Shown: positions 1,667 to 19,613 of the stretch, piece after piece | Layout of the letters: each line of letters starts with the position of its first letter | Numbering within the stretch: the first letter of the stretch is position 1 | Assembly: GCA_036788695.1 (NCBI GenBank) | Contig: DAIQMY010000001.1 | Location: 236,134 to 300,133 of the forward strand | Direction of reading: 5' to 3' | Length of the DNA stretch: 64,000 nt | DNA from: Candidatus Levyibacteriota bacterium | Lineage (GTDB): Bacteria; Patescibacteriota; Microgenomatia; Levybacterales; GWA1-39-11 | Made by a program: the position numbers and the translations under genes | Notes under the pieces: model-generated | What the model was told of the DNA's origin: nothing | The model's database searches: none | What the model saw: the letters and a program-made list of their open reading frames with translations, nothing else

Positions 1667-1695
1667 TTGACAGAATTTAGCAGTCATGTTATATT
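1667..1695 (+). promoter_or_regulatory. Sigma70-like promoter TTGACA-N17-TATATT upstream of hrcA
   Basis: TTGACA at ~1667-1672, a 17-nt spacer, and TATATT at ~1690-1695, about 60 nt upstream of the hrcA ATG. Confidence 0.5.
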
Positions 1696-1703
1696 ATTGC
1701 TAA
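1677..1703 (+). promoter_or_regulatory. CIRCE-like inverted repeat (putative HrcA operator) overlapping the -10
   Basis: TTAGCAGTC-N9-TATTGCTAA, compared with the CIRCE consensus TTAGCACTC-N9-GAGTGCTAA. The outer TTAGCA / TGCTAA arms are conserved and the inner arms are degenerate. Confidence 0.5.
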
Positions 1704-1754: not shown

Positions 1755-2474
1755 ATGTATGATCTAACACCACGGCAGGTTGATATTTTAAAGCTAATAG
1801 TAAGAGAGTATATTGATAACGCAGAGGCAGTAGGGTCAGAAACTCTTGAGAAAAAACACGATGTGGGGATATCCCCTGCAACTATTAGAAATGAAATGGC
1901 AGCTATGGTTAAGTTGGGATATTTATCAAAAGCTCACACATCAGCAGGAAGAATTCCAACTACGAAAGCTTTAAAGCTTTACATAAACGAGCTGATGCGT
2001 GAAAAAGAGCTGTCTGTTGCTGATGAGGTTCAGGCAAAGGAACATGTTTGGGACTTACGTTCTCAAGAAGAAAAGTTTTTAAGAGGCATAACGAGGGATT
2101 TGGCGCAAAAGACAAGAACGCTTGCAGTTACAACAACAGATGACGGAGATATCTACTATTCAGGGTATGCAAATATTCTTGAAACGCCAGAGTTTTATGA
2201 TATTGATATAGCAAAGAATTTATTATCAATTTTAGATAGCGCAGTATGTTTTGACTTGATTACAAAAAGAATTGAAAATGAATTAGGAGTTTTTTTAGGA
2301 GATGAACTTGGAAGTGATATGTATAGACCGTATAGTTTTGTTTTTTCAAGATTTCACACTAAAAATATTAATGGATCAATTGGGGTTGTAGGTCCTGCAA
2401 GAATTAGGTACGAGCTCGTAATCCCCACTGTACGATTTTTTGGCGGTCTTATTGGTGAGGTAGCTGAGTGGTAA
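1755..2474 (+). CDS. hrcA: Heat-inducible transcription repressor HrcA (short form, 239 aa)
   Basis: The N-terminal wHTH region (LTPRQVDILKLIVREYIDNAEAVGSETL...ISPATIRNEMAAMVKLGYL) matches HrcA. The gene sits immediately upstream of grpE-dnaK. Confidence 0.85.
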   Translation: MYDLTPRQVDILKLIVREYIDNAEAVGSETLEKKHDVGISPATIRNEMAAMVKLGYLSKAHTSAGRIPTTKALKLYINELMREKELSVADEVQAKEHVWDLRSQEEKFLRGITRDLAQKTRTLAVTTTDDGDIYYSGYANILETPEFYDIDIAKNLLSILDSAVCFDLITKRIENELGVFLGDELGSDMYRPYSFVFSRFHTKNINGSIGVVGPARIRYELVIPTVRFFGGLIGEVAEW

Positions 2475-5861: not shown

Positions 5862-6173
5862 ATGCTAGTATTAATACATATGGCTTGTGCAGTAAATGAA
5901 GTAGCAACAGAATTAGGTTGTCTTCCTGATGATCCAGTAGGTTTTGTTCAAAAGTTTTATGGTTGGGGACTTTCTCTTATTGGAATGGTTGGGATTTTGT
6001 TTCTTATTTATGGAGGTTATCACATTCTAACATCCGGTGGGAATCCAGAAAGATTACAAAAAGGTAAGGAATATATATATTATGCAATTGCAGGAATTTT
6101 ACTCGCTGTTTTTGGGTATGTATTTGTAGAATTTATTGCAGGGTCAATACTTAGAATTCCCGGATTTTCATAA
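5862..6173 (+). CDS. Small two-TM protein resembling a TrbC/VirB2-type pilin core
   Basis: About 100 aa with two hydrophobic helices (GWGLSLIGMVGILFLIYGGYHIL and IYYAIAGILLAVFGYVFVEFIAGS) separated by a short polar loop (NPERLQKGKEY). There is no obvious cleavable leader. Confidence 0.3.
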   Translation: MLVLIHMACAVNEVATELGCLPDDPVGFVQKFYGWGLSLIGMVGILFLIYGGYHILTSGGNPERLQKGKEYIYYAIAGILLAVFGYVFVEFIAGSILRIPGFS

Positions 6174-6181
6174 TTTTTATT

Positions 6182-8344
6182 ATGTTAAAACAACTGCCCA
6201 TATTGTTTTTTTCAATACTGCTTTTATTGGTGTTTTCCTCTCGTGTGAGCTTTGCACAGTCAACATCAACAGTGAATACTTCCAAAAATCCTTTGGGAAC
6301 AGTAAATATTAAAATAGCAGATAATTCTGATTCTGTTCAGATTGATGATTCAGTGACTCCTGCAGTTGGGGATTGGATACCTGATTCAACGGTTACATTT
6401 GTGGGAAAAACAGCGAATAGGGCTGGAGATTTTCTTGATTGGACTATTCGGAATTATGACTGGACATGTGTAAAAACGAACACTGGATCATGTACGAGCG
6501 CGGGAAATCCATTAGTGGGCTTCTGGGCGCTTATCAGGAACATTGTATATGCGCTTCTTCTTATTGTAGTGTTGATTGCAGCTTTTGTGATGATAATAAC
6601 ACGCGGTAAAAGCCTGACAATAACACGTTTTATTCCACGATTTATATTTATTATTATATTAGTAACCTTATCATATGCACTTATACAACTTGCCTATCAG
6701 GTGACGGATATTGTCCAGGGATTTTTTCTTAGAACGGATGGAAAGCTTATCTCAACAAAAGACTTAATATTTATTGGATTTGATTATAAGAATTTTGAGG
6801 GAGCAAGGCGATATGGTTCACAGTATGATGAATCAGCTTTTATCACTCTCTTATTAGTACGGCTTACGGCTCTAACGTACTACGTTATGACAGGGGTGTT
6901 GTTAGTAAGAAAGATTATTTTATGGTTTTTTATTATCTTATCGCCTGTTTTTCCGCTTTTGCTCTTTTTTAAGCCCGTAAGAAATACAGGTAAAATATGG
7001 GTAGGTGAGTTTTTTAGATGGTTATTATACGCACCTCTTTTTGCAATATTTTTACAAGGATTAGTTGTACTGTGGAAGAGCAAAGGAGGTATACCTCTAG
7101 CATTTGATTTTACAAATGTGGGAAATGTTATCTACCCTACCGCAGTAAATATTTTAATAGGAGGACCTGGACAAAAGATATTTTTTGATACAGAAACAAG
7201 TTCTAACAGTGTTAACTTACAGGATACATTTGCGCTTTACATTGTAGCCTTGTTGATGTTATGGGTGGTAATTATATTGCCATTCTTGCTTCTTAAAATT
7301 TTCTTAGATTACTTAGGTGGGATATCACTTCAAGATAATGTGACAATGAAAAGGCTTCTTAATCGTGGATCTGAATTTTTACCAATTAATCGTCCTCCAA
7401 CTTCTCCTCCACCTGCTTCACTTCCGCCATCTCAAGGTGCGGGTAGAGCTATGCAAATACCATTTAATGCGTCTGCTTCCCGAAATATATCTGATACAAG
7501 AGCAATGAGTTCAGCACAGGCAAATCGTTCTATTGCGTCTATTCCGGTTAATGCACAGATATTGCAACTCGCTAATTTATCAGTACCAAAAATGCGAGAT
7601 ATTGCTCGTTTTGAAACATCTATGGTAACTCATAATTCGTCTAAAATGCAGGATGTCTCAAGACTAAAAACATCACTTACGAGAATTTCAAATCCTACTA
7701 CTATCACTGCTCCATTAGAGCGAGAAAGATATACGCAAGTAAAACAACAATTAATGTCAGAGAAACAAAAAGGTAATGTTCTGGCATCCTCAATTTTGAC
7801 TGCAGCAAACACAACAGCCGCTCCTTATCAGAAAGGAATGGTTTCATCCCAACAGGTTCATTTGCCGCAAGCAAATAAAGTTCAACAAGTAAGCATAGAA
7901 GACTACGAAGAAGTAAGAAAAATGTGGCAAGATACGTACCAAAATTCGACACCTCCAACTGATCTTTCAGGAAAGAAGGATTCAAGAGAAGAGTGGATTA
8001 AAGGAGATATAGATAAAATCAATCAAGCTATAACACTTTTAAATTCCGTTGATCCGGTAAGAACTCAGGAGGGAATGGATATGGTTTCAAATATACTTCC
8101 GTTCCTTATGATTGGTGGTTTCTCGAAAACTGAAGTTGTTGCCTATCTCAAGGCGAAGTTAGAGGCTGCCAAGGATGTTCTTTCATCAAGTTCCAAGAAA
8201 AATGAAGAAGACGATACTATGATTGATCGTAAAACAAAAACTGCAACTGCGGAAAATCATATGAGCACTCATGCAGAGGCAGAAGTTCCAACAGTAGATG
8301 ATGGCACAAAAAAACTTGAAGAATTAAGAAAACAAGGGCTATAA
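6182..8344 (+). CDS. Signal-peptide-bearing polytopic membrane protein, VirB6/TrbL-like topology, with a long S/T/Q-rich C-terminal region
   Basis: Has an N-terminal signal (LLLLVFSSRVSFAQS), a ~70-aa ectodomain, at least five TM helices, and a ~350-aa polar tail. It starts 9 nt after the small two-TM gene. Confidence 0.3.
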   Translation: MLKQLPILFFSILLLLVFSSRVSFAQSTSTVNTSKNPLGTVNIKIADNSDSVQIDDSVTPAVGDWIPDSTVTFVGKTANRAGDFLDWTIRNYDWTCVKTNTGSCTSAGNPLVGFWALIRNIVYALLLIVVLIAAFVMIITRGKSLTITRFIPRFIFIIILVTLSYALIQLAYQVTDIVQGFFLRTDGKLISTKDLIFIGFDYKNFEGARRYGSQYDESAFITLLLVRLTALTYYVMTGVLLVRKIILWFFIILSPVFPLLLFFKPVRNTGKIWVGEFFRWLLYAPLFAIFLQGLVVLWKSKGGIPLAFDFTNVGNVIYPTAVNILIGGPGQKIFFDTETSSNSVNLQDTFALYIVALLMLWVVIILPFLLLKIFLDYLGGISLQDNVTMKRLLNRGSEFLPINRPPTSPPPASLPPSQGAGRAMQIPFNASASRNISDTRAMSSAQANRSIASIPVNAQILQLANLSVPKMRDIARFETSMVTHNSSKMQDVSRLKTSLTRISNPTTITAPLERERYTQVKQQLMSEKQKGNVLASSILTAANTTAAPYQKGMVSSQQVHLPQANKVQQVSIEDYEEVRKMWQDTYQNSTPPTDLSGKKDSREEWIKGDIDKINQAITLLNSVDPVRTQEGMDMVSNILPFLMIGGFSKTEVVAYLKAKLEAAKDVLSSSSKKNEEDDTMIDRKTKTATAENHMSTHAEAEVPTVDDGTKKLEELRKQGL

Positions 8345-8394: not shown

Positions 8395-11055
8395 ATGTTC
8401 GGAAATTTATTTAATTCAGGAAAACAGAACGACCAGATTGTAAGTCATGACACTCGGGTAAATATTGGAGATCCTGCACTTGGGGGAACAAGTATTTCCA
8501 TTAATTCGTCAGATAACCCAAATCAGATACAGCCCCCTCCTGTTTCTCAAAGCGCTGTCGGAATGGATCCACAAAAAAGGGAAAATATGTTTGCCTTGTC
8601 GCGTCTTGATCCTCGAGCACTCCAAGTTCTTCATCATGCTCAGGAAGAAACTAAGCGCTTGTCTCAAGAATTTATTAATCCTGAGCAGCTTTTGCTAGGG
8701 CTTTTTTATGATGGGGATGTATTTCGCATATTAGAGCAATTCAGTGTAGATGTAGCTAAGTTAACACATGAGATTCAAGCAAAAGAAAAGCCGGGCGCTT
8801 TTTCTGGACAACCCACTATGGGTCCAAGCGTTGTTAAAATTTTTGATGAGGCATATTCGAATGCAAAAAAAAGAGGAGCCTCATTTGTTTCCCCTGAGGA
8901 TATAATGGTTGCACTTTTTTCGGAAACATCAACTTCTGAGTTTTTAAAAACATTTGGGGTACAACGTGATAAATTAGAGGAAAAATTATCTAAATCTACC
9001 GGATATGCTTCATCTTCAAGAAAAAGTGTGCTTGAGAGATATGGGATTGATCTGACTCAAGAAGCAAAGGACGGAAAGTTAGATCCTATTGCGGGTCGTG
9101 AGCGGGAAACAGAACGTTTAATACACATTTTATTAAGAAGAACCAAGAATAACCCAATCATAATTGGTGAGGCAGGTGTAGGAAAGACAGCAATTGTCGA
9201 ATCGCTTGCACTTAAAATTGCAGAAGGATCAGTTCCTCATGATCTTCTCAATAAGCGAATTATTCAGCTAGAGCTCGCATCACTTGTTGCGGGAGCTTCA
9301 CATAGAGGTGAATTTGAGGAGAGGTTACAGGATGTAATTAAAGAGACACAGGCATCAAATGGTCAAGTAATATTATTTATTGATGAGATACACACGCTTA
9401 TAGGGACTGGGGATACACAGGGAGCTATGGATGCTTCCAATATTATAAAACCATATTTGGCAAGAGGGCAGTTGCAGCTTATTGGAACTACGACTACTGC
9501 TGAGTATCGTAAATATTTTGAAAAAGATAAAGCATTTGAAAGGCGCTTTCAGGCAGTGTTAGTAGATGAACCTACTGAAGATGTTGCAGAACAAATGCTT
9601 GAAGTTTTAAAGCCAAAATATGAAAAATTTCACTCTGTTGAGATTACCCCAGAGGCAATTCAAGCCGCGGTTCATCTTTCAAAAAAATATATAGGAGAAA
9701 GATATTTACCTGATAAGGCGGTAGATTTACTAGATGAAGCAGCAGCTGAGGTAAAACTACAACATACAGAAGGAAAAAGACAGGATAACAAGGTTGTAAA
9801 ATCAGACATAGAGAAAGTTGTATCTGCCTGGACTGGAATTCCCATAACTCGTCTAACTGAAGATGAATCTCAGAAGTTAATTCATTTGGAAGATATTATT
9901 CATAAAAGACTCATTGATCAAGAAGAGGCTGTTGCGGCAGTATCTGAAGCAGTCAGGCGTGGAAGGATTGGTCTTGCGAGTGCAAACAGACCAATCGCAT
10001 CATTTATTTTCTTGGGTCCAACTGGAGTTGGGAAAACGGAACTAGCAAAAACTCTCGCGGAAATTCTCTTTGGGCGGGACGATCTTATGATAAGACTAGA
10101 CATGTCAGAGTACATGGAAAAACATGAGGTTGCAAAACTTATAGGTGCCCCTCCTGGTTATGTGGGGTACGAAGAAGGTGGGCAGTTGACGGAAGCAGTG
10201 CGCGCAAAGCCTTACTCAATAGTACTTTTAGATGAAATAGAAAAAGCCCATCCAGACGTATTCAATATTTTACTCCAGTTGCTAGAGGATGGAAGACTTA
10301 CTGATAATAAAGGGAATACTATATCTTTTAAGAATACAATTATTATAGCAACATCAAATATTGGGTCTTCCCTTATTCAACAAACTCTTTTAACGCAAAG
10401 TTCAAACGCAACTCAAGTAGTTTCTCCTGCAGAGGAAGCAAAAAGATTCTCATCTTTATCAAAAACATTGATGGATGAATTAAGGAAGTTTTTTAAACCA
10501 GAATTATTAAATCGTTTTGATGAGATAGTAATGTTTAAGCCACTGCGCCAACAGGACATGATGCAGATCGCAAGAATAGGGATATCCAAAACACAAAAAT
10601 TATTAGCAGAACAGGATATAGACCTAACTATAACTGAAAAAGCTCTTGGTGTATTGTCAAAAGAAGGTTACGATCCGGTTTATGGAGCACGTCCGCTCAG
10701 AAGACTTATACAATCATCCATAGAAAATCCAATCGCAATACTTCTTATTAACAAAACGTTTGTGGCGCATGATACAGTTCAAATTGATTATGATGATACA
10801 AAAGCACAGTTTACTTTTACAAAACTGGTACAAGCTGTGGATAAAAAAGAACAACCACCTACTGCAACACCTTCAACACAAGCAGCAACTGAACCAACCA
10901 ACACAACAACAGTTAAGTCTACTGAGACAGCAAACGGGAATGGGATCTTGTCTGATATTGCAAAAGAGCACTCGGCTGTTACGCCTCCGCCTACACAAAC
11001 AACTCCTCCAACGCCATCAGTTGACGCAAGTGGCACTATGATGCAACCCGCCTAA
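8395..11055 (+). CDS. Class-I Hsp100/Clp AAA+ ATPase (ClpA/ClpC-like, two AAA modules, no M-domain)
   Basis: Has Clp_N repeats. D1 carries GEAGVGKTAIVE and ILFIDEIHTLIG (intact Walker A/B) plus an ERRFQ arginine finger. D2 carries FLGPTGVGKTELAK, LLDEIEKAHPDV, GARPLRR and LLNRFDEIVMF. Only ~28 aa separate D1 and D2, so there is no ClpB-type coiled-coil M-domain. It has low-complexity N-terminal (~70 aa) and T/P-rich C-terminal tails, and no IGF/L ClpP loop is apparent. Confidence 0.8.
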   Translation: MFGNLFNSGKQNDQIVSHDTRVNIGDPALGGTSISINSSDNPNQIQPPPVSQSAVGMDPQKRENMFALSRLDPRALQVLHHAQEETKRLSQEFINPEQLLLGLFYDGDVFRILEQFSVDVAKLTHEIQAKEKPGAFSGQPTMGPSVVKIFDEAYSNAKKRGASFVSPEDIMVALFSETSTSEFLKTFGVQRDKLEEKLSKSTGYASSSRKSVLERYGIDLTQEAKDGKLDPIAGRERETERLIHILLRRTKNNPIIIGEAGVGKTAIVESLALKIAEGSVPHDLLNKRIIQLELASLVAGASHRGEFEERLQDVIKETQASNGQVILFIDEIHTLIGTGDTQGAMDASNIIKPYLARGQLQLIGTTTTAEYRKYFEKDKAFERRFQAVLVDEPTEDVAEQMLEVLKPKYEKFHSVEITPEAIQAAVHLSKKYIGERYLPDKAVDLLDEAAAEVKLQHTEGKRQDNKVVKSDIEKVVSAWTGIPITRLTEDESQKLIHLEDIIHKRLIDQEEAVAAVSEAVRRGRIGLASANRPIASFIFLGPTGVGKTELAKTLAEILFGRDDLMIRLDMSEYMEKHEVAKLIGAPPGYVGYEEGGQLTEAVRAKPYSIVLLDEIEKAHPDVFNILLQLLEDGRLTDNKGNTISFKNTIIIATSNIGSSLIQQTLLTQSSNATQVVSPAEEAKRFSSLSKTLMDELRKFFKPELLNRFDEIVMFKPLRQQDMMQIARIGISKTQKLLAEQDIDLTITEKALGVLSKEGYDPVYGARPLRRLIQSSIENPIAILLINKTFVAHDTVQIDYDDTKAQFTFTKLVQAVDKKEQPPTATPSTQAATEPTNTTTVKSTETANGNGILSDIAKEHSAVTPPPTQTTPPTPSVDASGTMMQPA

Positions 11056-11079: not shown

Positions 11080-12834
11080 ATGCAAAGCATACTTCATGTG
11101 TTAAGGCGTATTGATACTCGTTTTTTTCTGTTGCCATTTTTATTATTTGCATTTGGAGCAATTGGATACGTAGCTGTCCAGGGGATATTTTTTCAAAATG
11201 ATAAAATATTTCCTCAAGGCGTACGGTATATTCCTGATCAAATAATAGTTAAATATAAAATTGGTCAATCTCCAGATGAACTTCAAAACGCGGGTAAGAT
11301 AGAAAATAGAAAAGTTCTCTTATCAGCATTATCAAATGTGGGTGTTGTCTCACAAAAGAGGCTATATGTTTCAGAAAATTCTTTGCTTGAAAATTATTAT
11401 GTATTAACGCTCAAGCCTGGTTTTACTGTTCCAGACGCATATAATAAGATCACAAAGATACCCGAAATAGAAAATGCTGCACCTGACTATATATTAAAAA
11501 TACAAGAGATGCCTAATGATCCATACTACCCATCTATGTGGAATCTTTCTAAGATTAAAGCAGAATTAGCGTGGGATTCTGTGCATGTAGGCGGGAGAGT
11601 CACAATTGCAGTTATTGATACGGGAGTTGATTATCAGCATGAGGATTTAAAAGATATCGTTATAAAAGGAAAGAATTTTATTTTAAATGATAATAATCCA
11701 ATGGATGACCAGGGGCATGGAACGCATGTTGCAGGAATAGCTGCCGCAGTTACAAATAATGGTATTGGGATAAGTGGTGCTACATGGGGAGCTAAAATAT
11801 TGGCTATTAAAGCCTGTGATAAAAATGGGGATTGTAGTACGGCAAATGTTTCAAGAGCTATTCAGTACGCTGTAGATAATAATGCAAAAATTATAAATGT
11901 CAGTATTGCTGGGAGCGGTTCGTGTAATGGAACATATACAGATGTATTAAGATATGCGGCAAGAAAAGGCGCGATAGTAGTTGTTGCTGCAGGAAATGGA
12001 AATAATGGGGATGGAATAGGTGTAAATGTAGAATCCCAAATACCCGCATCGTGTGAAGGTTCTATTGCGGTAGGTTCAATAACAGCAGATGGTAAAAGGT
12101 CAGGTTTTTCTAATTTTGGATCCAAAGTTGAAGTTTCAGCTCCGGGTGGTGTTGGTCCTTGTACTATGGAGAGTTGTATTATTTCAACCAGTATTAATAA
12201 TTCGTACTCACTTCGTTCTGGAACATCTATGGCAGCCCCTCAGGTGAGTGCTGTCGCCGCTCTCCTTTTAGCTTCTGATAAAAATTTGTCTATGTCAAAA
12301 ATTAAATCCTGTATTTTAAGTGGAGGAGATAACATTCAAACAGATAAAAGTATCGGTCTTCTTCTGAACGCCCAAAATTCCCTAAAGATTTGTACTAAAA
12401 TTGAGGCAACTCCTACTCCAAAAATGAGTAAAAATAATTCGTCTATTGCGGGTACTGTATTTATTGACGAAAATAAGAATAAAAAGCTTGACTCAATAGA
12501 AAAAACATTATCGTCTGCCCAGATAATCTTGTCCGGCTTAAGTAATGATAGTGTTCTTAGTAACTCAAAAGGTAAATATTTATTTTTGGGGTTACCGGGT
12601 GGTTTATACACAATATCTGCAACCCTAAATGGGCAAAGCGTAATTGTACCTATAGACGTATCTGTTGCATCAGATAATTCGGTTCAACTTAATATACCTA
12701 TATCTTCGGAGATGGTGATTATTACGCCAACACCTTCATTCGCAAAGCAAAAAACTGCGTCTTATTGTTTCATAGACCCCGAGTGTTTAAAGAGTAGGAA
12801 CTCAGTTCAAATATGTTCGTTTCGGTGTGAGTAA
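11080..12834 (+). CDS. Subtilisin-like serine protease (peptidase S8), N-terminal TM/signal anchor
   Basis: Catalytic triad contexts VTIAVIDTGVD (Asp), HGTHVAGIAAA (His) and GTSMAAPQVSAVAALL (Ser), with a hydrophobic N-terminus and a C-terminal beta-rich extension. Confidence 0.8.
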   Translation: MQSILHVLRRIDTRFFLLPFLLFAFGAIGYVAVQGIFFQNDKIFPQGVRYIPDQIIVKYKIGQSPDELQNAGKIENRKVLLSALSNVGVVSQKRLYVSENSLLENYYVLTLKPGFTVPDAYNKITKIPEIENAAPDYILKIQEMPNDPYYPSMWNLSKIKAELAWDSVHVGGRVTIAVIDTGVDYQHEDLKDIVIKGKNFILNDNNPMDDQGHGTHVAGIAAAVTNNGIGISGATWGAKILAIKACDKNGDCSTANVSRAIQYAVDNNAKIINVSIAGSGSCNGTYTDVLRYAARKGAIVVVAAGNGNNGDGIGVNVESQIPASCEGSIAVGSITADGKRSGFSNFGSKVEVSAPGGVGPCTMESCIISTSINNSYSLRSGTSMAAPQVSAVAALLLASDKNLSMSKIKSCILSGGDNIQTDKSIGLLLNAQNSLKICTKIEATPTPKMSKNNSSIAGTVFIDENKNKKLDSIEKTLSSAQIILSGLSNDSVLSNSKGKYLFLGLPGGLYTISATLNGQSVIVPIDVSVASDNSVQLNIPISSEMVIITPTPSFAKQKTASYCFIDPECLKSRNSVQICSFRCE

Positions 12835-12876: not shown

Positions 12877-13746
12877 ATGAAAAAGGATTATTACGAGATA
12901 CTCGGCGTATCAAAGAGTGCGACTCCTGACGAATTAAAAAGGGCATATAGAAAATTGGCCCTGCAGTATCATCCAGATAAAAATAAAACCCACGAAGGTG
13001 AGGAAAAATTTAAGGAAATAAACCATGCATATGAAGTGCTTTCAGATCCTGGAAAGCGTGCGACGTATGATCAGGTCGGTCCGTCTGGATTTGATGGAGG
13101 CGCAGGCGCTGCGGGTGCAGGAGGACCATTTGGTGGGCAGAGGGGTGGTCAATACGGACCGTTTACCTACACATATGGGAATGGTGCGGAGGGAGCAAAT
13201 TATGATTTTGGCGGGTTTTCTGACCCGTTTGAGATCTTTGAGCAATTTTTTGGGGGTGGATACGCAAAGCGTAAACCAAGATACAGTATAACGATAGACT
13301 TTTTAGAGGCAGTTCATGGTACTTCAAAGAAGGTTTCAATAGATGGGAAAGCTCAAACAATTAAAATTCCTGCAGGAGTAGATAACGGATCAAGAATTCA
13401 ATTTCCAAACTATGAAGTCATTGTAGGAGTGAGAGGAAGTAGCAAATTTCACAGAGAAGGAAATGATATTATAACTGAGAGTGTAGTCCCGCTATCTATT
13501 GCCATTCTTGGTGGAACCATAGAAATAGAAACTGTGCATGGTCAGGTAACACTTAAAATTCCTGCAGGAACTCAACCGGACACCCTTATGAGAATAAAAG
13601 GAAAGGGTGTGCCTCGTGTTAGGGGTGGAGGAAGCGGTGATCATTTTGTTCGAATTAAAATTCTCATTCCAACAAGGATAAACTCACGACAAAAAGAATT
13701 ACTTCATGAGTTTGATGAAGAAAGCCGTAAGAAGAAGTGGTTTTAA
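12877..13746 (+). CDS. DnaJ-family co-chaperone (J domain, G/F region, C-terminal substrate-binding domains), no zinc finger
   Basis: [35 protein letters not shown] is a J domain with HPD, followed by a G/F-rich region. There are no CxxCxGxG repeats, so it is CbpA/class-B-like. Confidence 0.75.
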
Positions 13747-14153
13747 TAAGAGTCAGAGAATTAGATTCCCAAGCTATTGCTTTCCCTCGTTATAAACATC
13801 TAATATGTATACATATGGGTATTCTGTCCTATCCTCTTTTGGTGGTTTTGTTTTGGTATAAAGAAGGTATATTTTATATCTTGTTGTATTTCCGTTCGTT
13901 TGACGACTACTGCATACGACTACTCTCATTGCATGGATTATTCTCAAGCTATTTTAAGCCGCTTAAAAACGAGTACAGAAAGAATCTTATTTTGTTTTCA
14001 ATACTTTTTGGGGTGATTGTCAAAACATGTTTAATTGCCATATCTCTCCTTCTATTGTTTTTCATTTTACTTTTTGAGGGACTATTGCTCCTCCTCTATA
14101 TTCTTTTTCCAATTCTGCCTTTATTTATTCTATTTTTATCTAAATATATATGA
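13737..14153 (+). CDS. Hypothetical small hydrophobic protein; may be spurious AT-rich translation
   Basis: A 138-aa ORF in an otherwise ~400-bp gap that overlaps the downstream Hsp100 paralog start as ATGA. Its composition is dominated by F/I/L from AT-rich DNA. Confidence 0.2.
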
Positions 14154-16528
14154 GTCTTATGAAAAATCTTGATCTGTTTAGCTTGTATGTTTTTTATAAT
14201 AATATATTCGTAAAAACCTTTCGTTTTTTAATACTTTTTTTATTAACGATTGCCTTGTTCTACGTAATAAGTGATTTATATTTGTTTAGAATAATTCTTA
14301 GTTTTTATATTGTATTTCTTGTAAATGAAATTTTTATTCATTTTAAGATTAATAAATCCCATCCTTTCAACACAGTAATGATAAGTAGCGACTTGCCTGA
14401 GAAGGCAGTACTGCTGAACGTAAGATATTTGATTTGGTCAAAAAGTAATAATGCTTTTCTTGAGAAATTAATAAAGCAGAAAGATGTTCTATTCTTTATT
14501 ACAAAAATCGACGGATTTAAGGTGTCTTCTGTTGAATTCAATATGACTGGGTTACTTAACAAAGCATCTTCGCTTGCGCAAGCCTGCAAGGGGACATACA
14601 TAACTGCCGCTGATATTTTTGCAGCATATCTTCTTATAACTGAAAACGAAAGCCATCTTTTGGATCAAAAAGAGTTAACAGAGAACGATATTTTGGAAAT
14701 ACTTTTATGGAGTAGGGAAAAATATAATTTTGATAAGGTAAAAGATTTTACGATGCATTTTACAGGAGCGGGTGTTTTTGATTTTTTTATCTACGGTTGG
14801 AATACTCAATTAAAAGAATACTCACTTGATTTAACGTATAGCGTACTTGGGAAAAATATGGCACCTGTTGTAGGGAGAGAAAAAGAGTTTTCTCAAATGG
14901 TGGGAATATTATCAAAAAATTCAATCAATAACATATTAATAATAGGAGAACCTGGTGTTGGAAAATCTTCTCTTGTATCACTTCTGGCATTAGAAGCATA
15001 CCGAAATACGAGATTTATTTTACATAGCACTGTTGTGTATGAGCTTCTTGTTGATAGGCTGCTTGCTGGCGTTTCAGATGCGGGAGAGTTGGAAACGCGC
15101 CTAGGCTTACTACTTTCCGAAATCGAACATATTGGAAATGCTGTACTCTTTATTCAAAACATGGAAAATATCTTTGGAGCTGGAGGGTTTGGTTTTGATA
15201 TGTCGGGAATATTATTTTCCTATTTAAAAAATGGAAAGGTACAGATAATAGGTACAACTACACCGTCATTTTATAAAACTATAATTGAAAAGAAATCAAG
15301 TATTATGAGCTTGTTCGAATTATTAAGGCTAGAGGAACCTGACCGTGATGTCTCACTGCAAATGATTGTGGCCCATGTTGATACTATTGAAAGAGAATAT
15401 CATGTGACCATTTCATATAAAGCAATACATGAGGCATTGGAATTGGCCTCATCATTTCTTCCCGAAACATTTCTTCCTGGGAAAGCAATTATTCTTCTCT
15501 ATGATATTTCGTCGAGGGTTAGGCTTGCGGGTGGAGGTCAAGTTGAGAAGGAGGATGTGGTGAAGTTTATTCAAGAAAAGACAAATATTTTACTTGAAAG
15601 GCCAGATGTAGACGAGAAAAAAGTTTTATTATCTCTAGAGCAAGAATTGCACAAGAGAATAATAGGGCAAGATGAGGCGGTGACTGCAATTTCAAAAGCA
15701 ATAAGAAGGCTCAGGAGTGGTTTTTCTCAGAGTAAACGTCCAATTTCAACTTTTCTCTTTTTAGGTCCTACGGGAGTCGGAAAAACGGAAACAGCAAAGG
15801 CACTATCTCAAATATACTTTGGGGATGAGGCAAATATGATCAGACTTGACATGAGTGAGTATCAGACACAAAATGAGGTGGAAAGATTGTTAGGCGGTGT
15901 TCCTGGAGGGATAGAAATAGAAAACTCATTACCTGAGCAGGTTAGGCTTCATCCTTTTTCACTAATACTATTAGACGAATTTGAAAAGGCACATCCGCAT
16001 ATATTAGATATTTTTCTACAGGTTTTTGAAGATGGTCGACTTACGGATAATAGTGGTAAAACGGTTTCATTTAAAAATACTATTATTATCGCAACAAGCA
16101 ACGCGGGCTCAGAGTCAATTCGTGAGATGATGCATGAAGGGAAAGACCCATTTCTTGCGAAAGACGTTTTAGTAGAGGGATTACTTAGGGAAGGAGTTTT
16201 TAAGCCAGAACTTTTAAATAGGTTTGATGATGTGATTATTTTTACCCCACTTTCTGTTTTTGAAGCGACTGAAATCGCGAAGTTGATCTTGGCATTATCT
16301 TTGAAGTCATTAGAGGATGAACAGATTTTTATAGGATTTGACGACAAGGTTGTAAGTAAAATAGTGCACGATTCATTTGATGAAGAGGCTGGTGCTAGAA
16401 ATATGAGAAGATATGTAGGGTCGACTATTGAGGACTATATATCAAAGCTTATACTGGAAGACAAGTTGCAAAAAGGAGCACATGTAACTTTAACTGTCGA
16501 CGAGACCAACAATTTTATATTACAATAA
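14150..16528 (+). CDS. Membrane-anchored Hsp100/Clp paralog with inactivated D1 (pseudo-ATPase) and intact D2
   Basis: The N-terminal ~70 aa are hydrophobic (2 TM), followed by a Clp_N-like domain. D1 keeps a Walker A (GEPGVGKSS), but its Walker B is VLFIQNMENIF versus ILFIDEIHTLIG in the upstream paralog, so DE has become QN, and its arginine finger ERRFQ has become MSLFE. D2 is intact (FLGPTGVGKTETAK, LILLDEFEKAHPHI, GARNMRR, LLNRFDDVIIF). An alternative start lies at Met77 (~14378). Confidence 0.7.
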   Translation: MSLMKNLDLFSLYVFYNNIFVKTFRFLILFLLTIALFYVISDLYLFRIILSFYIVFLVNEIFIHFKINKSHPFNTVMISSDLPEKAVLLNVRYLIWSKSNNAFLEKLIKQKDVLFFITKIDGFKVSSVEFNMTGLLNKASSLAQACKGTYITAADIFAAYLLITENESHLLDQKELTENDILEILLWSREKYNFDKVKDFTMHFTGAGVFDFFIYGWNTQLKEYSLDLTYSVLGKNMAPVVGREKEFSQMVGILSKNSINNILIIGEPGVGKSSLVSLLALEAYRNTRFILHSTVVYELLVDRLLAGVSDAGELETRLGLLLSEIEHIGNAVLFIQNMENIFGAGGFGFDMSGILFSYLKNGKVQIIGTTTPSFYKTIIEKKSSIMSLFELLRLEEPDRDVSLQMIVAHVDTIEREYHVTISYKAIHEALELASSFLPETFLPGKAIILLYDISSRVRLAGGGQVEKEDVVKFIQEKTNILLERPDVDEKKVLLSLEQELHKRIIGQDEAVTAISKAIRRLRSGFSQSKRPISTFLFLGPTGVGKTETAKALSQIYFGDEANMIRLDMSEYQTQNEVERLLGGVPGGIEIENSLPEQVRLHPFSLILLDEFEKAHPHILDIFLQVFEDGRLTDNSGKTVSFKNTIIIATSNAGSESIREMMHEGKDPFLAKDVLVEGLLREGVFKPELLNRFDDVIIFTPLSVFEATEIAKLILALSLKSLEDEQIFIGFDDKVVSKIVHDSFDEEAGARNMRRYVGSTIEDYISKLILEDKLQKGAHVTLTVDETNNFILQ

Positions 16529-17540: not shown

Positions 17541-19613
17541 TTATAATAAGAAAGACTTTAATAGTCGTAGTCTGGTATAGAATGGTAGAGCTTTTATAAA
17601 AATGGCTCTCACAAGAGCCCTTCGTTTAGTAGCTCTTATTCCAATAAATATAGCTAGGAAAGTCATTATTAGATAATATACCCATAAATCATTTCTATAG
17701 TTATCCCCTTTTTCCATATATGCTCCAGCAATTTTAATTTCTTTCTTGCTACCCGTCTTGTTTCCGGTTTTTGTAGTTGCAGCCAATACTTTTCCATTTC
17801 CCTTAGAAGATACCATAAAATAACTTTCCGCCGTGGCTTCAACTACTGTATCTTTCCCTGTAGTGCCAGTTACATAGGAGAGCGCAGTATAATGTCCCGC
17901 AGGTGCATTATTTGTAAGAACTAACCCGGTTGTTAAGCGTTTTGTTTTTTGAGCTTCGATATCTTCAAGATCAAATGATGGTCCCCCCATAAATTCTCCA
18001 TCTTTGTAGAGCCCTATTAACAATTTTGCTCCATATATTTTTCCTGTTCCGTTATTTTTTGTGTCTACAAAAAATGTTACAGTATCTCCAGGATTTACAA
18101 ACTCTCCCACATTATTTTTATTTGTAACCGTAAGTTTTCCTCCGGATTCTGGATCCTTTATTTTTTCTTGACTATCACCATTTGATATTTGTTCTAATGA
18201 ATGTTCTTCTTGTGTTACTTCTGTAATAAATTTACTTGCGCCACCGATACTTCCTGACCAGTTTCCAAAAACGTTAATAAAAGCAAAAAAACCATTTGTT
18301 TTGAAAAAATTTGAGTTGATAAAGTTAATCAGTGAAACTGCAGAGTATGCATTTCCGGTTTGTATAAGTCCATCATTTCCATGAATAATGTTGGTCCCGG
18401 TATCTGCCTTTGTTTTAACGGTGTTTTTTACAATAGCTGTGTTCTCAGTTATAAGAGCAGTATCACAATCACAGTCATTATTATTATTTGAGAGGCTTAA
18501 GGTGTCTCCTCCATTTTGAGGTTCAAAACTATCCCACCCCAAAAAATTACCAGTCCATTTTCCTAGAACGTTTATAAATAGCTTTTGGAATAGTGCTCCG
18601 ACAGCATTTGTATTTACCATATCTACAATGTTTATAATGCTGTGTGAGGTGCCGGTCTTGATCATTGAAGAAGAGCTAGCTATATCTATGCTGTTGTTCC
18701 CGGTATTCGTATCAGCTGTTACATCATTTTCTATAAGTGCAATATTTTTCATGGTTGCAGATGAACCACAGGATGCACATTCTGTTTCTTCATGAAAGTC
18801 AGGAAGAATTATATTGCCTGAAAAGTCTCCAAATATATTAATGGTGACTATATGGATAACAGAGTCGACAACAGTGAAATTTGCTTTATTTACGAGTGAG
18901 ACTACAGAGTATGCATCCCCTGTTTTGATAAGGGCGTTTTCTCCTTCAGCTATTTCATTTCTTCCTGTAGACGCGGTGGCAAATACATCATTGTCAAGAT
19001 ACACATAGTTTTTTGCATCAGTTACAGAAACGTTAACAATCGGGTTTGTATTTTTATCCTGAGAGATGATCGTGTAGGCAAGATTAAATGGTGTAGACAA
19101 ATCTATACTTTCTGCATCGTCTACAAAGATATTAATAGTTTGATTTATCACCTGTGAATTAATTGAATTTGTGTTTACTGTGTTGTCTACAGACACGAGC
19201 GTTGTAGAATCGCCCGTTGTAATAGAAGAGCTTGAGTTCTGCTGTGCAGGTGAGGAGCTCTGAGGAGTTTCGTGAGAGTTACTTGAAGGTAAGTTAGATG
19301 AAGCCTCTTCAGCGTCCGGAGGAGTAAGCTCAGCAGAGGTGGTTGAAATATTTTCTCCTGTGTTAGATGCTCCCGCAGTTGTATCATGCGCTTCAGTTGT
19401 ATTTGCTTGTGTTGTGTTTTCTGCGGCTTCACTTGGAGATGGAGTGGGGGTAGTAGTTTGGGTTGGTGTTGGATCAGCTTGCTCTATTACAGTAGGCGTA
19501 GGGGTATCAGTTGGTGTTTCATCAAGCGCGTAGACTGTGAATGGCGAGATAGAATTGACTCCAATAACAAGAAATATAATAAAAAGTGCGAAATATCTTT
19601 TGAATCCTGCCAT
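17541..19613 (-). CDS. Cell-surface protein: signal peptide, T/P-rich linker, three internal ~65-aa repeats each preceded by a C-x-C motif, C-terminal TM anchor
   Basis: Has a signal (FALFIIFLVIGVNSISPFTVYA) and a PT-rich linker. The repeats centre on IKTGDAYSVVSLVNKAN / IKTGTSHSIINIVDMVN / IQTGNAYSAVSLINFIN, and each ends in INxFGxWSGN. CASCGSS and DCDCDT precede repeats 2 and 3. The C-terminus has a TM (LWVYYLIMTFLAIFIGI) and a basic tail. Confidence 0.5.
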   Translation of the reverse strand: MAGFKRYFALFIIFLVIGVNSISPFTVYALDETPTDTPTPTVIEQADPTPTQTTTPTPSPSEAAENTTQANTTEAHDTTAGASNTGENISTTSAELTPPDAEEASSNLPSSNSHETPQSSSPAQQNSSSSITTGDSTTLVSVDNTVNTNSINSQVINQTINIFVDDAESIDLSTPFNLAYTIISQDKNTNPIVNVSVTDAKNYVYLDNDVFATASTGRNEIAEGENALIKTGDAYSVVSLVNKANFTVVDSVIHIVTINIFGDFSGNIILPDFHEETECASCGSSATMKNIALIENDVTADTNTGNNSIDIASSSSMIKTGTSHSIINIVDMVNTNAVGALFQKLFINVLGKWTGNFLGWDSFEPQNGGDTLSLSNNNNDCDCDTALITENTAIVKNTVKTKADTGTNIIHGNDGLIQTGNAYSAVSLINFINSNFFKTNGFFAFINVFGNWSGSIGGASKFITEVTQEEHSLEQISNGDSQEKIKDPESGGKLTVTNKNNVGEFVNPGDTVTFFVDTKNNGTGKIYGAKLLIGLYKDGEFMGGPSFDLEDIEAQKTKRLTTGLVLTNNAPAGHYTALSYVTGTTGKDTVVEATAESYFMVSSKGNGKVLAATTKTGNKTGSKKEIKIAGAYMEKGDNYRNDLWVYYLIMTFLAIFIGIRATKRRALVRAIFIKALPFYTRLRLLKSFLL

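Follow-up and report, generated by a model that had tools for sequence, protein, structure and literature searches.

In bacteria, the textbook Clp/Hsp100 protein is a soluble motor that threads its substrates by means of tyrosine paddles. In a stretch of 64,000 nucleotides from a Candidatus Levyibacteriota bacterium (hereafter the window), one Clp/Hsp100 paralog begins with hydrophobic helices and has altered motifs in its first AAA+ ring, raising the question of what kind of Clp protein this is and what it might do at a membrane. The product, which we call TM-Clp, is a member of a distinct Clp/Hsp100 subfamily of Levybacteria, which are uncultured ultra-small bacteria, and related Microgenomates (Patescibacteria/CPR). 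From the N- to the C-terminus it comprises a membrane hairpin of two helices, a Clp_N-fold domain, D1 and D2 (Table 1). Its motif states are shared by 38 database homologs and 70 species-level genomes, with D1 motifs intact in none of these orthologs, which disposes of the strain or sequencing artefact that the initial annotation had considered. About 70 species-level genomes carry the ORF at full length, with 37–88% identity, and the N-terminal architecture is exclusive to the family (112 representative clusters among 1.84 billion); among the matches, the complete proteins are all 778–876 aa. All marks that we propose for the subfamily are present in TM-Clp: a TM hairpin with E60/F62/P72, a G-x-G...G-W linker, a D1 predicted to be dead, a D2 predicted to be live and a gene for a membrane protein of ~110 aa directly upstream; the two-gene module is found in the most distant clades as well.

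Table 1 Features of the two-gene module and its context in the window.
Feature	Residues	Position	Strand	Support or remark
Canonical soluble Clp paralog		8395..11055	+	Comparator; Clp_N, D1 with DE and RR, D2 with GYVG
dnaJ		12877..13746	+	Directly upstream of module; context only
Small polytopic membrane partner gene	112 aa	13815..14153	+	Most likely start ATG 13815
TM-Clp, TM-anchored Clp/Hsp100 paralog, whole gene	792 aa	14150..16528	+
N-terminal transmembrane helical hairpin	19-67	14204..14350	+	Hydropathy across 38 homologs; AlphaFold
Clp_N-fold N-domain	83-192	14396..14725	+	Structure-based test; sequence very divergent
Family-specific conserved N-to-D1 linker motif HFTGAGVFDFFIYGW	203-217	14756..14800	+
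D1 AAA+ module, predicted conserved pseudo-ATPase	223-462	14816..15535	+	Aligns to ClpC D1; AAA_lid_9
D1 Walker A GEPGVGKS	266-273	14945..14968	+	Canonical here, degenerate in half of family
D1 pore loop 1 AGVSDAGE	306-313	15065..15088	+
D1 degenerate Walker B, QN replacing D-E	336-337	15155..15160	+
D1 site of lost double arginine finger, SIMSLFE	384-390	15299..15319	+
D2 AAA+ module, large subdomain, catalytic apparatus intact	501-700	15650..16249	+	PF07724 AAA_2 5.9e-49
D2 pore loop 1 region, GGVPGGIEIENSL in place of GAPPGYVGYEEGGQL	582-594	15893..15931	+
D2 small domain (ClpB_D2-small)	701-792	16250..16525	+	PF10431 6.2e-14

The tandem AAA+ arrangement of TM-Clp is that of a Clp protein. 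Its closest solved relative is B. subtilis ClpC (phmmer 4e-116), to which it gives a two-domain alignment, with D1 matching ClpC D1 (domain i-Evalue 3e-37) and carrying AAA_lid_9 (PF17871, 2.5e-8), and D2 consisting of AAA_2 and ClpB_D2-small; to the soluble paralog upstream it is 39% identical over residues 221–784 (BLASTP). At the same time, the scores fall far below the curated NCBIfam cut-offs of the known families: 446.5 bits vs 1232 for ClpB (TIGR03346/PRK10865), where the match consists of two stretches that skip the M-domain, 426 vs 993 for ClpA (TIGR02639), 386 vs 885 for ClpV/TssH, and 378 and 373 vs 1900 for ClpG and ClpK. No T6SS genes were found in the neighbourhood of TM-Clp. Members appear in databases only as 'ATP-dependent Clp protease ATP-binding subunit' or 'AAA family ATPase', and our search of the searchable literature returned no publication that describes a comparable TM-anchored Hsp100, as the initial annotation had supposed.

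Two hydrophobic helices form the N-terminus (Kyte-Doolittle 19-residue peaks of 2.3 and 2.1), and AlphaFold places them at residues 19–38 and 43–67 with a pLDDT of about 90 and an inter-helix loop of only about four residues. The hairpin (dN/dS 0.11–0.16) carries conserved R25, E60 (60/70) and F62 (66/70) together with a NEIFIHFK motif, and is followed by an invariant proline (P72, 70/70). A true start at Met77, which had been raised as a way of losing the membrane region, was rejected because residues 1–76, including these four positions, are conserved and the hairpin is found family-wide. A structure-based test identifies the next domain as the Clp_N-type domain of class I Clp/Hsp100 proteins. 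Its sequence is very divergent; hhalign of the N-region against the N-domain of the paralog gives a probability of 8%, and hmmsearch against the PDB returns spurious Pumilio matches only. The linker between this domain and D1 contains invariant G206, G208 and W217 and has a dN/dS of 0.03; its motif region has low pLDDT in the AlphaFold model.

In D1, BLASTP aligns VLFIQNMENIFG of TM-Clp with ILFIDEIHTLIG of the upstream paralog at Walker B, and SIMSLFE with AFERRFQ at the arginine fingers; B. subtilis ClpC has LFIDELHTLIGAGG and ALERRFQ in the same columns. The changes of DE to QN and of ERRFQ to MSLFE noted in the initial annotation thus stand, as does its canonical Walker A. Its question whether orthologs share QN has a divided answer: none of the 70 members has the Walker B Asp (first position P 56, Q 9, E 2, S 2, K 1), but QN is a variant of one subclade and the family norm is P-[N/E/D]. 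The double arginine finger, which is S-L here, is lost in all members, and TM-Clp hence has neither part of the catalytic D1 that marks class I unfoldases (Walker B D-E and the ERRFQ Arg pair). With neither the Walker B Asp nor the trans-acting Arg pair retained anywhere in the family, D1 is predicted to be incapable of canonical ATP hydrolysis, in agreement with the hydrolysis-dead D1 first proposed. The accompanying suggestion that D1 binds nucleotide is plausible for the protein in the window but is not a family property, because Walker A retains both K and S/T in only 35/70 members (K 63/70; S/T 37/70). Purifying selection on the D1 large subdomain (dN/dS about 0.03–0.06) is as strong as on D2, and D1 therefore appears to be a structural pseudo-ATPase ring.

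D2 is different. Walker A (GPTGVGKT, residues 539–546), Walker B (D609-E610), sensor 1 (N651), the Arg finger (R691, 69/70) and the sensor-2 GAR motif in the adjoining small domain (R750) are each conserved in 69–70/70 members, and dN/dS is 0.02–0.035. Since every catalytic element is kept, including the trans Arg finger, ring or spiral assembly and ATP hydrolysis are both expected of D2. The claim that all of D2 is canonical holds for these elements but fails at the pore loop, where PGGIEIENSL replaces canonical PGYVGYEEGGQL and leaves the canonical position without Tyr; in the family this loop is hypervariable or deleted, being 2–10 residues shorter in 29/70 members, and it is acidic in this clade. 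The D1 pore loop has likewise lost the Tyr of canonical K-Y-R, which is Asp here, Asn in most relatives and Tyr in 1/70, although the surrounding AG-x-x-N-[R/Q]-G-[E/D] is moderately conserved. Thus TM-Clp has the aromatic pore loop 1 in neither ring (K-Y-R in D1; G-Y-V-G in D2). Moreover, none of the 38 members scanned has the ClpP-docking [I/V/L]-G-[F/L] tripeptide in the stretch from sensor 1 to the Arg finger, the family lacks an M-domain, and TM-Clp has a short D1–D2 linker and no UVR/M motif. The initial annotation had mentioned none of these four losses (two pore-loop tyrosines, ClpP loop, M-domain), which together undermine the picture of an ordinary class I unfoldase.

TM-Clp does not come alone. 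The initial annotation had offered two TM helices or a separately encoded hydrophobic ORF as alternatives; both exist, and the ORF (13737..14153), in ATGA start/stop overlap with TM-Clp, is a partner gene. Its length of 138 aa is more likely 112 aa, because homologs are 108–112 aa, as in the loci L001, L003 and L005 where they lie directly upstream of TM-Clp; ATG 13815 is most likely the start, and the listed GTG at 13737, which overlaps the dnaJ stop, is probably spurious. The partner has 1,109 database homologs, none with a Pfam match, and carries a conserved FKP(L/I)KNEYR motif, an invariant K70 and a near-invariant E88 in its hydrophobic part. It lies directly upstream of TM-Clp in 78/78 testable loci, with a spacing from partner stop to Clp start of −4 in 23/69 and of 0 to 10 nt in 32 more, and in two independent lineages (L045 and P0347) it is fused to the Clp protein, the last helix of the partner taking the place of the first TM helix of Clp. 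From these fusions the basic FKPxKNEYR loop would lie outside the cytoplasm, at odds with the positive-inside rule. Membrane-embedded charges of the hairpin and the partner are nearly invariant; in the co-variation analysis of the two, the top mutual-information pairs have z below 4 and are not separable from phylogeny. Read from its sequence, 13815..16528 is a conserved, translationally coupled two-gene membrane module. A frameshifted single gene was rejected: the two genes are separate and of constant size in about 70 genomes, only L045 and P0347 are fused, and the two fusion junctions each differ from simple read-through.

In the window, hrcA-grpE-dnaK is found beside the module, and among about 80 loci dnaJ lies upstream in 35. 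This company suggests a role in membrane proteostasis under stress; the link could be plain synteny, because dnaJ is present in under half of the loci and nusA-infB, downstream, is as frequent a neighbour. The only match to the CIRCE/HrcA operator is a site with three mismatches at 1677–1703, upstream of hrcA and away from the module. Between 8000 and 17800, promoter-like sites are fewer than in shuffles and no informative terminator lies between genes; operon structure is therefore inferred from spacing alone.

How might such a module work? With belief and doubt about equally balanced, we favor a model whereby it is a D2-driven, non-threading membrane remodeller that acts with its partner, rather than a ClpA/B/C-type unfoldase or disaggregase, because it lacks the elements that processive threading, delivery to ClpP and coupling to DnaK each require. 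In this model, TM-Clp and the partner would form one membrane complex, as their strict adjacency, start/stop overlap and two independent fusions suggest. The hairpin would hold the Clp_N domains and the dead D1 ring close against the membrane, with the live D2 ring distal, and D2 would use ATP either to bind and release membrane-associated clients or a partner oligomer, or to assemble and disassemble them, with the remodelling acting through the Clp_N domains and the conserved linker. That the job at the membrane differs from ordinary Clp unfolding is probable, because one engine and the substrate-gripping loops have been lost. This function is deduced from losses. We also note that non-aromatic pore loops do not strictly exclude translocation, and the D1 loop could still contact substrate.

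It is tempting to speculate, as a tentative analogy only, that the module is a bacterial non-threading Hsp100 that works like the Torsin–cofactor system. The membrane ring might then consist of the 12 hairpin helices and the helices of six small partners, with the D2 ATP cycle driving its assembly, gating or disassembly and the pseudo-ATPase D1 ring as a rigid coupling platform. Torsins are Clp/Hsp100-related and membrane-associated, and in them a non-threading, dynamic-assembly model accompanies the loss of aromatic pore loops (PMC5425593), which speaks for the remodeller favored above.

An alternative, which we consider unlikely, is a membrane-tethered unfoldase or extractase similar to FtsH, Msp1 or PEX1/PEX6, in which D2 pulls proteins in or near the membrane through the central channel and the dead D1 is only a scaffold. 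The FtsH-like two-helix anchor, the Clp_N domain for substrates or adaptors, the fully competent D2 and the heat-shock gene neighbourhood would fit this idea, and there is a precedent in PEX1/PEX6, where an arrangement of dead D1 and live D2 works. However, across the family both rings lack the canonical pore-loop Tyr, the hypervariable, often shortened and, in this clade, acidic D2 loop is unlike a conserved substrate-gripping element, and the ring facing the membrane would be the dead one. We are more doubtful that TM-Clp is a membrane anchor or regulatory subunit of the soluble paralog a few kb upstream, tethering or throttling that threading motor in mixed hexamers or stacked rings: in most loci the paralog is missing from the 6-kb flank while the partner is always there, the two Clp proteins are only about 39% identical, and the trans D2 Arg finger of TM-Clp itself suffices for homomeric catalysis. 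That the module belongs to a mobile anti-phage defence or toxin system made of a TM protein and an AAA+ ATPase is very improbable; defence systems commonly pair an ATPase with a small membrane protein, and the PADLOC models DolB and PDC-M37B match the D2 region, but we rejected this reading because the matches show generic AAA_2 similarity only (core at residues 467–660), and the partner matches nothing, the housekeeping context of dnaJ upstream and nusA-infB downstream is stable across many genomes, no compositional anomaly was found at the module, and the patchy strain-level presence and absence of defence islands is not seen. Finally, a decaying ClpC/ClpA duplicate under relaxed selection and with no specific function, as the joint loss of several canonical motifs and the variable D1 Walker A might indicate, is effectively refuted by dN/dS (0.07–0.08 overall, lower in D1), and is also at odds with the full-length ORFs, the invariant D2 catalytic residues, the family-specific motifs (G206/G208/W217, E60, P72) and the obligate partner gene.

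The unit of a tiny membrane protein and a membrane-anchored Clp/Hsp100 relative thus represents a conserved, lineage-specific Clp branch, membrane-integrated and left with a single engine, that has given up its substrate-gripping loops and its interfaces to ClpP and DnaK and is always accompanied by a dedicated partner. Re-annotation as one system would be possible for about 100 Clp-labelled protein clusters and >1,000 small proteins now called 'hypothetical'. If the module is active as we propose, the Hsp100 scaffold can be repurposed in bacteria for a non-threading membrane task, so far discussed mainly for the eukaryotic Torsins; if the Torsin analogy is true, it would represent a previously unknown mode of Clp/Hsp100 action in bacteria, the remodelling of membranes or membrane proteins rather than polypeptide translocation. 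The family also offers a natural experiment on the contribution of a dead D1 ring, on D2 working alone and on membrane proteostasis in reduced-genome CPR bacteria.

Compared with known systems, TM-Clp is a true homolog of ClpC, ClpA and ClpB, with which it shares the Clp_N fold, tandem D1 and D2, the D2-small domain and a fully conserved D2 catalytic site; it differs from them in the TM hairpin, the loss of the D1 Walker B Asp and RR finger and of both pore-loop tyrosines, the obligate small membrane partner and scores far below curated cut-offs, from ClpA and ClpC in lacking the ClpP-docking loop, and from ClpB and ClpC in lacking the M-domain. FtsH has two N-terminal TM helices that hold its AAA+ ring at the cytoplasmic face and, as we propose for TM-Clp, works with membrane partner proteins; unlike TM-Clp, it has a single AAA module of another clade, aromatic pore loops, a periplasmic domain between the TM helices and an M41 protease, and Pfam finds no Peptidase_M41 in TM-Clp, which places it outside FtsH. 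PEX1/PEX6, with a dead D1 and a live D2, is held at the membrane by the small membrane protein Pex15/PEX26. Similarly to the type-II AAA+ proteins PEX1/PEX6 and NSF, TM-Clp has tandem AAA+ rings of which one is predicted to be a conserved, non-hydrolysing scaffold and the other the motor, whereas PEX1/PEX6 belongs to another AAA+ clade, keeps aromatic D2 pore loops, threads its substrate and has a separate tail-anchored protein as anchor in place of an integral hairpin. The plant Clp-like co-repressors SMAX1/D53 are soluble and nuclear, lack a membrane anchor and show no evidence of an intact D2 motor such as TM-Clp has kept. Torsins with LAP1/LULL1 are Clp/Hsp100 D2-related, with an N-terminal hydrophobic segment, transmembrane cofactors and a pair of active and degenerate AAA+-like units (PMC5425593). 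Membrane association, the absence of aromatic pore loops and the combination of an active and a degenerate AAA+ unit are common to Torsins and TM-Clp. Yet Torsins are eukaryotic, ER-lumenal proteins with a single D2-type module and no Arg finger of their own, the arginine being supplied by the cofactor, while TM-Clp has its own D2 Arg finger (R691), its degenerate module D1 fused in cis and a small partner without an AAA+ fold.

Our alignments and structural model show the anchored Clp (TM-Clp; TM hairpin, Clp_N-fold domain, D1 and D2) and its partner, the small membrane protein encoded directly upstream, as a predicted integral-membrane two-component Hsp100 derivative, with a D1 that would serve as scaffold and a D2 that appears catalytically complete. 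We favor, with middling confidence, a model whereby the pair uses ATP to remodel membrane-associated clients or the partner assembly without threading them. In this model, the dead D1 face and the Clp_N domains of the ring would abut the membrane and the helices of the partner, and D2 would power it.

BLASTP aligns residues 221-784 of the anchored Clp with the canonical paralog, a soluble Clp of 886 aa, at 39% identity, placing VLFIQNMENIFG opposite ILFIDEIHTLIG in the D1 Walker B region and SIMSLFE opposite AFERRFQ in the D1 arginine-finger region. Both D1 substitutions are seen again against the best solved relative among all PDB chains, B. subtilis ClpC (phmmer, 4e-116), which has LFIDELHTLIGAGG and ALERRFQ there. 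Pfam assigns AAA_2, ClpB_D2-small and AAA_lid_9 and has no match for Clp_N, and NCBIfam scores are far under every curated Clp cut-off (ClpB 446 against 1232, ClpA 426 against 993, ClpV 386 against 885). Because of these BLASTP, phmmer, Pfam and NCBIfam comparisons, the changed Walker B and arginine finger of D1 described in the initial annotation are upheld. G+C is ~37% in the window, with no compositional break near the anchored Clp.

Features of the module and its surroundings in the window
Feature	Position	Strand	Remarks
CIRCE-like inverted repeat	1677..1703	+	TTAGCAGTC-N9-TATTGCTAA; 3 mismatches to consensus
hrcA	1755..2474		
T4SS_pilin-like protein, then 720-aa protein	5862..8344	+	pilin-like protein 103 aa
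Canonical Clp paralog	8395..11055	+	
Subtilase (Peptidase_S8)	11080..12834	+	
Upstream ORF	13737..14153	+	TGA stop overlaps next ATG as ATGA
Partner gene	13815..14153	+	
Anchored Clp ORF	14150..16528	+	792 aa
Linker motif	14756..14800	+	HFTGAGVFDFFIYGW; aa 203-217 of anchored Clp
Protein of probable cell surface	17541..19613	-	690 aa
Terminator-like hairpin	17604..17619		

Searching 5.8 billion proteins delineated a tight family (P0001-P0046), mostly of 770-798 aa and 40-97% identical to the anchored Clp, which comes from Levybacteria wherever an organism is named and is set apart from ordinary ClpC/ClpB by a sharp drop in score from 507 to 405 bits. Orthologs with intact D1 motifs, looked for as a sign of artefact, did not appear in the 38-member alignment: the D1 Walker B reads QN, PN, EN, PE, SN or QD and DE in 0/38, and the RR finger is missing from all 38, while all D2 catalytic motifs are kept. 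The anchored Clp is a member of a distinct family and not an artefact. At the D1 Walker B Asp position, a separate set of 70 members, drawn independently from species-representative genomes, has P in 56, Q in 9, E in 2, S in 2 and K in 1, and the QN of the window protein is a subclade variant. The D1 Walker A Lys is found in 63 of these 70, the next S/T in 37 and both together in 35; in D2, Walker A K and T, Walker B D and E, the sensor 1 N, the arginine finger and the sensor 2 R are each present in 69-70. In 25/25 cases, the canonical paralog from the same genome retains DE, RR and GYVG, and the degeneration is therefore specific to the anchored family.

The alignment with ClpC also reveals pore-loop changes that the initial annotation had overlooked, from AGTKYRGEFEDRL in ClpC to AGVSDAGELETRL in D1 and from PGYVGYDEGGQLTE to PGGIEIENSLPE in D2. 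The D1 pore-loop Tyr position is occupied by N in 41, by D in 11 and by Y in only 1 of the 70 proteins, among which the D2 pore loop takes 63 distinct sequences; the latter is acidic within the clade of the window protein and 2-10 residues shorter than there in 29 members. None of the 38 aligned members has a ClpP-docking [I/V/L]-G-[F/L] loop between sensor 1 and the arginine finger, and the D1-D2 linker of the anchored Clp is of insufficient length for an M-domain. These comparisons show a protein that would be without the determinants of threading, ClpP delivery and DnaK coupling. A genuine extractase using non-aromatic loops is conceivable, although we consider it unlikely.

Almost every one of the 38 homologs has two hydrophobic segments, at ~22-42 and ~45-65 (19-residue Kyte-Doolittle maxima in the window protein, 2.3 and 2.1), as part of an N-terminal region with the conserved motif NEIFIHFK; E60 is kept in 60, F62 in 66 and P72 in all of the 70-member sample. 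In the AlphaFold model (38-sequence alignment as input, mean pLDDT 82), helices 19-38 and 43-67 (pLDDT ~90) precede a helical domain and two AAA+ modules. Hydropathy and model thus bear out the N-terminal TM helices proposed initially. A start at Met77 was rejected, the region of residues 1-76 being conserved by all these features and by the profile of residues 1-222. In an exhaustive search of 1.84 billion representative proteins, this profile retrieved only 112 clusters; because the complete proteins among them are all 778-876 aa, with shorter hits fitting contig fragments, the N-terminus is confined to one architecture. The aromatic, glycine-flanked linker motif, in which G206, G208 and W217 are invariant, ranks among the most conserved family-specific features, has low AlphaFold confidence and may be an element for interaction or at the membrane interface.

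A gene of ~109 aa lies directly 5' of the anchored Clp in three distant contigs whose surroundings differ. The partner proteins can be aligned from end to end; the stretch F-K-P-x-K-N-E-Y-R is invariant, as are K70 and E88, and the alignment therefore sets the start of the window partner at ATG 13815; the separate upstream ORF noted initially is a real gene, though of 112 aa and not 138. Nearly all of the 1,109 database members of the partner family are 100-112 aa, and none has a Pfam domain or informative name. Scanning 185,579 species genomes with this family gave 146 confirmed loci, of which 80 were fetched; these are from Levyibacteriota, one Gottesmanbacteria, other genomes named Microgenomates and MAGs whose titles are placeholders. 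The anchored Clp begins right behind the partner in 78/78 loci with sufficient downstream sequence, the spacing between stop and start being -4 (ATGA) in 23 of 69 and 0 to 10 nt in 32 more; the upstream ORF is the partner gene of the anchored Clp. One locus, L045, encodes both as a single in-frame fusion of 872 aa. In a far more remote clade, a separate 136-aa partner abuts the anchored Clp P0349 and matches residues 11-86 of P0347 (876 aa, 38% identical to P0349; E 2e-9), which beyond this part is Clp from the second TM helix onward. That fusion is seen twice independently, and at equivalent junctions, argues that partner and anchored Clp form a physical complex and that the partner's last helix is oriented like the first helix of the anchored Clp. 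At locus L064 (6313..8849), the anchored Clp match is split into aa 12-629 and aa 620-791, ~130 nt apart, which could be a frameshift, insertion or assembly error in one genome. MAGs titled 'uncultured Gammaproteobacteria bacterium' (binchicken co-assemblies; L008-L013, L017, L018 and many others) carry a Levybacteria-type module; judging by gene content and by identities of 40-90% to Levybacteria proteins, these titles are placeholders or mislabels.

In the window, co-directional genes run from a CIRCE-like site through hrcA, grpE and dnaK to the canonical paralog, an S8 protease and dnaJ, followed by the partner gene, the anchored Clp and a 2-hydroxyacid dehydrogenase. That the anchored Clp tethers or regulates the canonical paralog seems to us rather doubtful. 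The commonest neighbors across ~80 loci are nusA (38), dnaJ (35), infB (30), the dehydrogenase (20), dnaK (17), S8 protease (16) and grpE (13); these are housekeeping surroundings, in which a connection to the Hsp70 system recurs without being universal. A role in defence is very improbable, the PADLOC similarity being to generic AAA_2 only. The CIRCE-like repeat (0.01 expected by chance) lies directly 5' of hrcA-grpE-dnaK, and no second copy was found near dnaJ or the Clp genes. The canonical paralog itself lacks an M-domain, has a ClpA-like short D1-D2 linker, no obvious ClpP-docking [IVL]G[FL] loop and long low-complexity P/T/Q-rich N- and C-terminal extensions; in its D1 pore loop, AGASHRGEFE, His replaces Tyr, as in 24/25 related genomes. 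The subtilase between it and dnaJ combines a hydrophobic segment at the N-terminus with a fervidolysin-like prodomain and a CarboxypepD_reg domain, and this arrangement recurs in 16 related loci, pointing to an exported protease inside the chaperone cluster. Between dnaK and the canonical paralog lie the genes for the pilin-like protein and the 720-aa protein, the latter without a Pfam match. Convergent with the module operon is a gene for a protein without a Pfam match that, from its N-terminal hydrophobic segment, T/P/S-rich low-complexity region and C-terminal hydrophobic/basic tail, looks like a cell-surface protein.

Comparison with L007 and L008, the two closest orthologs, gives dN/dS values of 0.030 and 0.064, respectively, for the D1 large subdomain, 0.035 and 0.023 for the D2 large subdomain, 0.03 and 0.03 for the linker motif (aa 201-222), 0.16 and 0.11 for the TM hairpin, and 0.12 and 0.23 for the N-domain. 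The low D1 values make the dead D1 a maintained structural element, and decay of the anchored Clp is accordingly hardly credible. A distant clade (L087/P0339 and relatives) keeps the D1 Walker B D-E (ILFIDEVQNV), but its RR finger is gone, as is the tyrosine of each pore loop; P0339 has a 109-aa partner upstream. This distribution suggests that anchor, partner and pore-loop changes came early and the Walker B change afterwards.

We found no description of the anchored-Clp family in the open-access literature, an absence that is not proof, and database labels for its members are generic. Torsins, like the anchored Clp, are Clp/Hsp100-related, membrane-associated and without aromatic pore loops (PMC5425593). 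They work with TM cofactors and are paired with a degenerate AAA-like unit (PMC5425593). By sequence, the anchored Clp is a true Clp/Hsp100 homolog that appears to lack the functional features by which ClpA, ClpB, ClpC and ClpV are defined. A second analogy for the remodeller that we propose is offered by NSF and PEX1/PEX6, type-II AAA+ proteins that likewise have one inactive ring.
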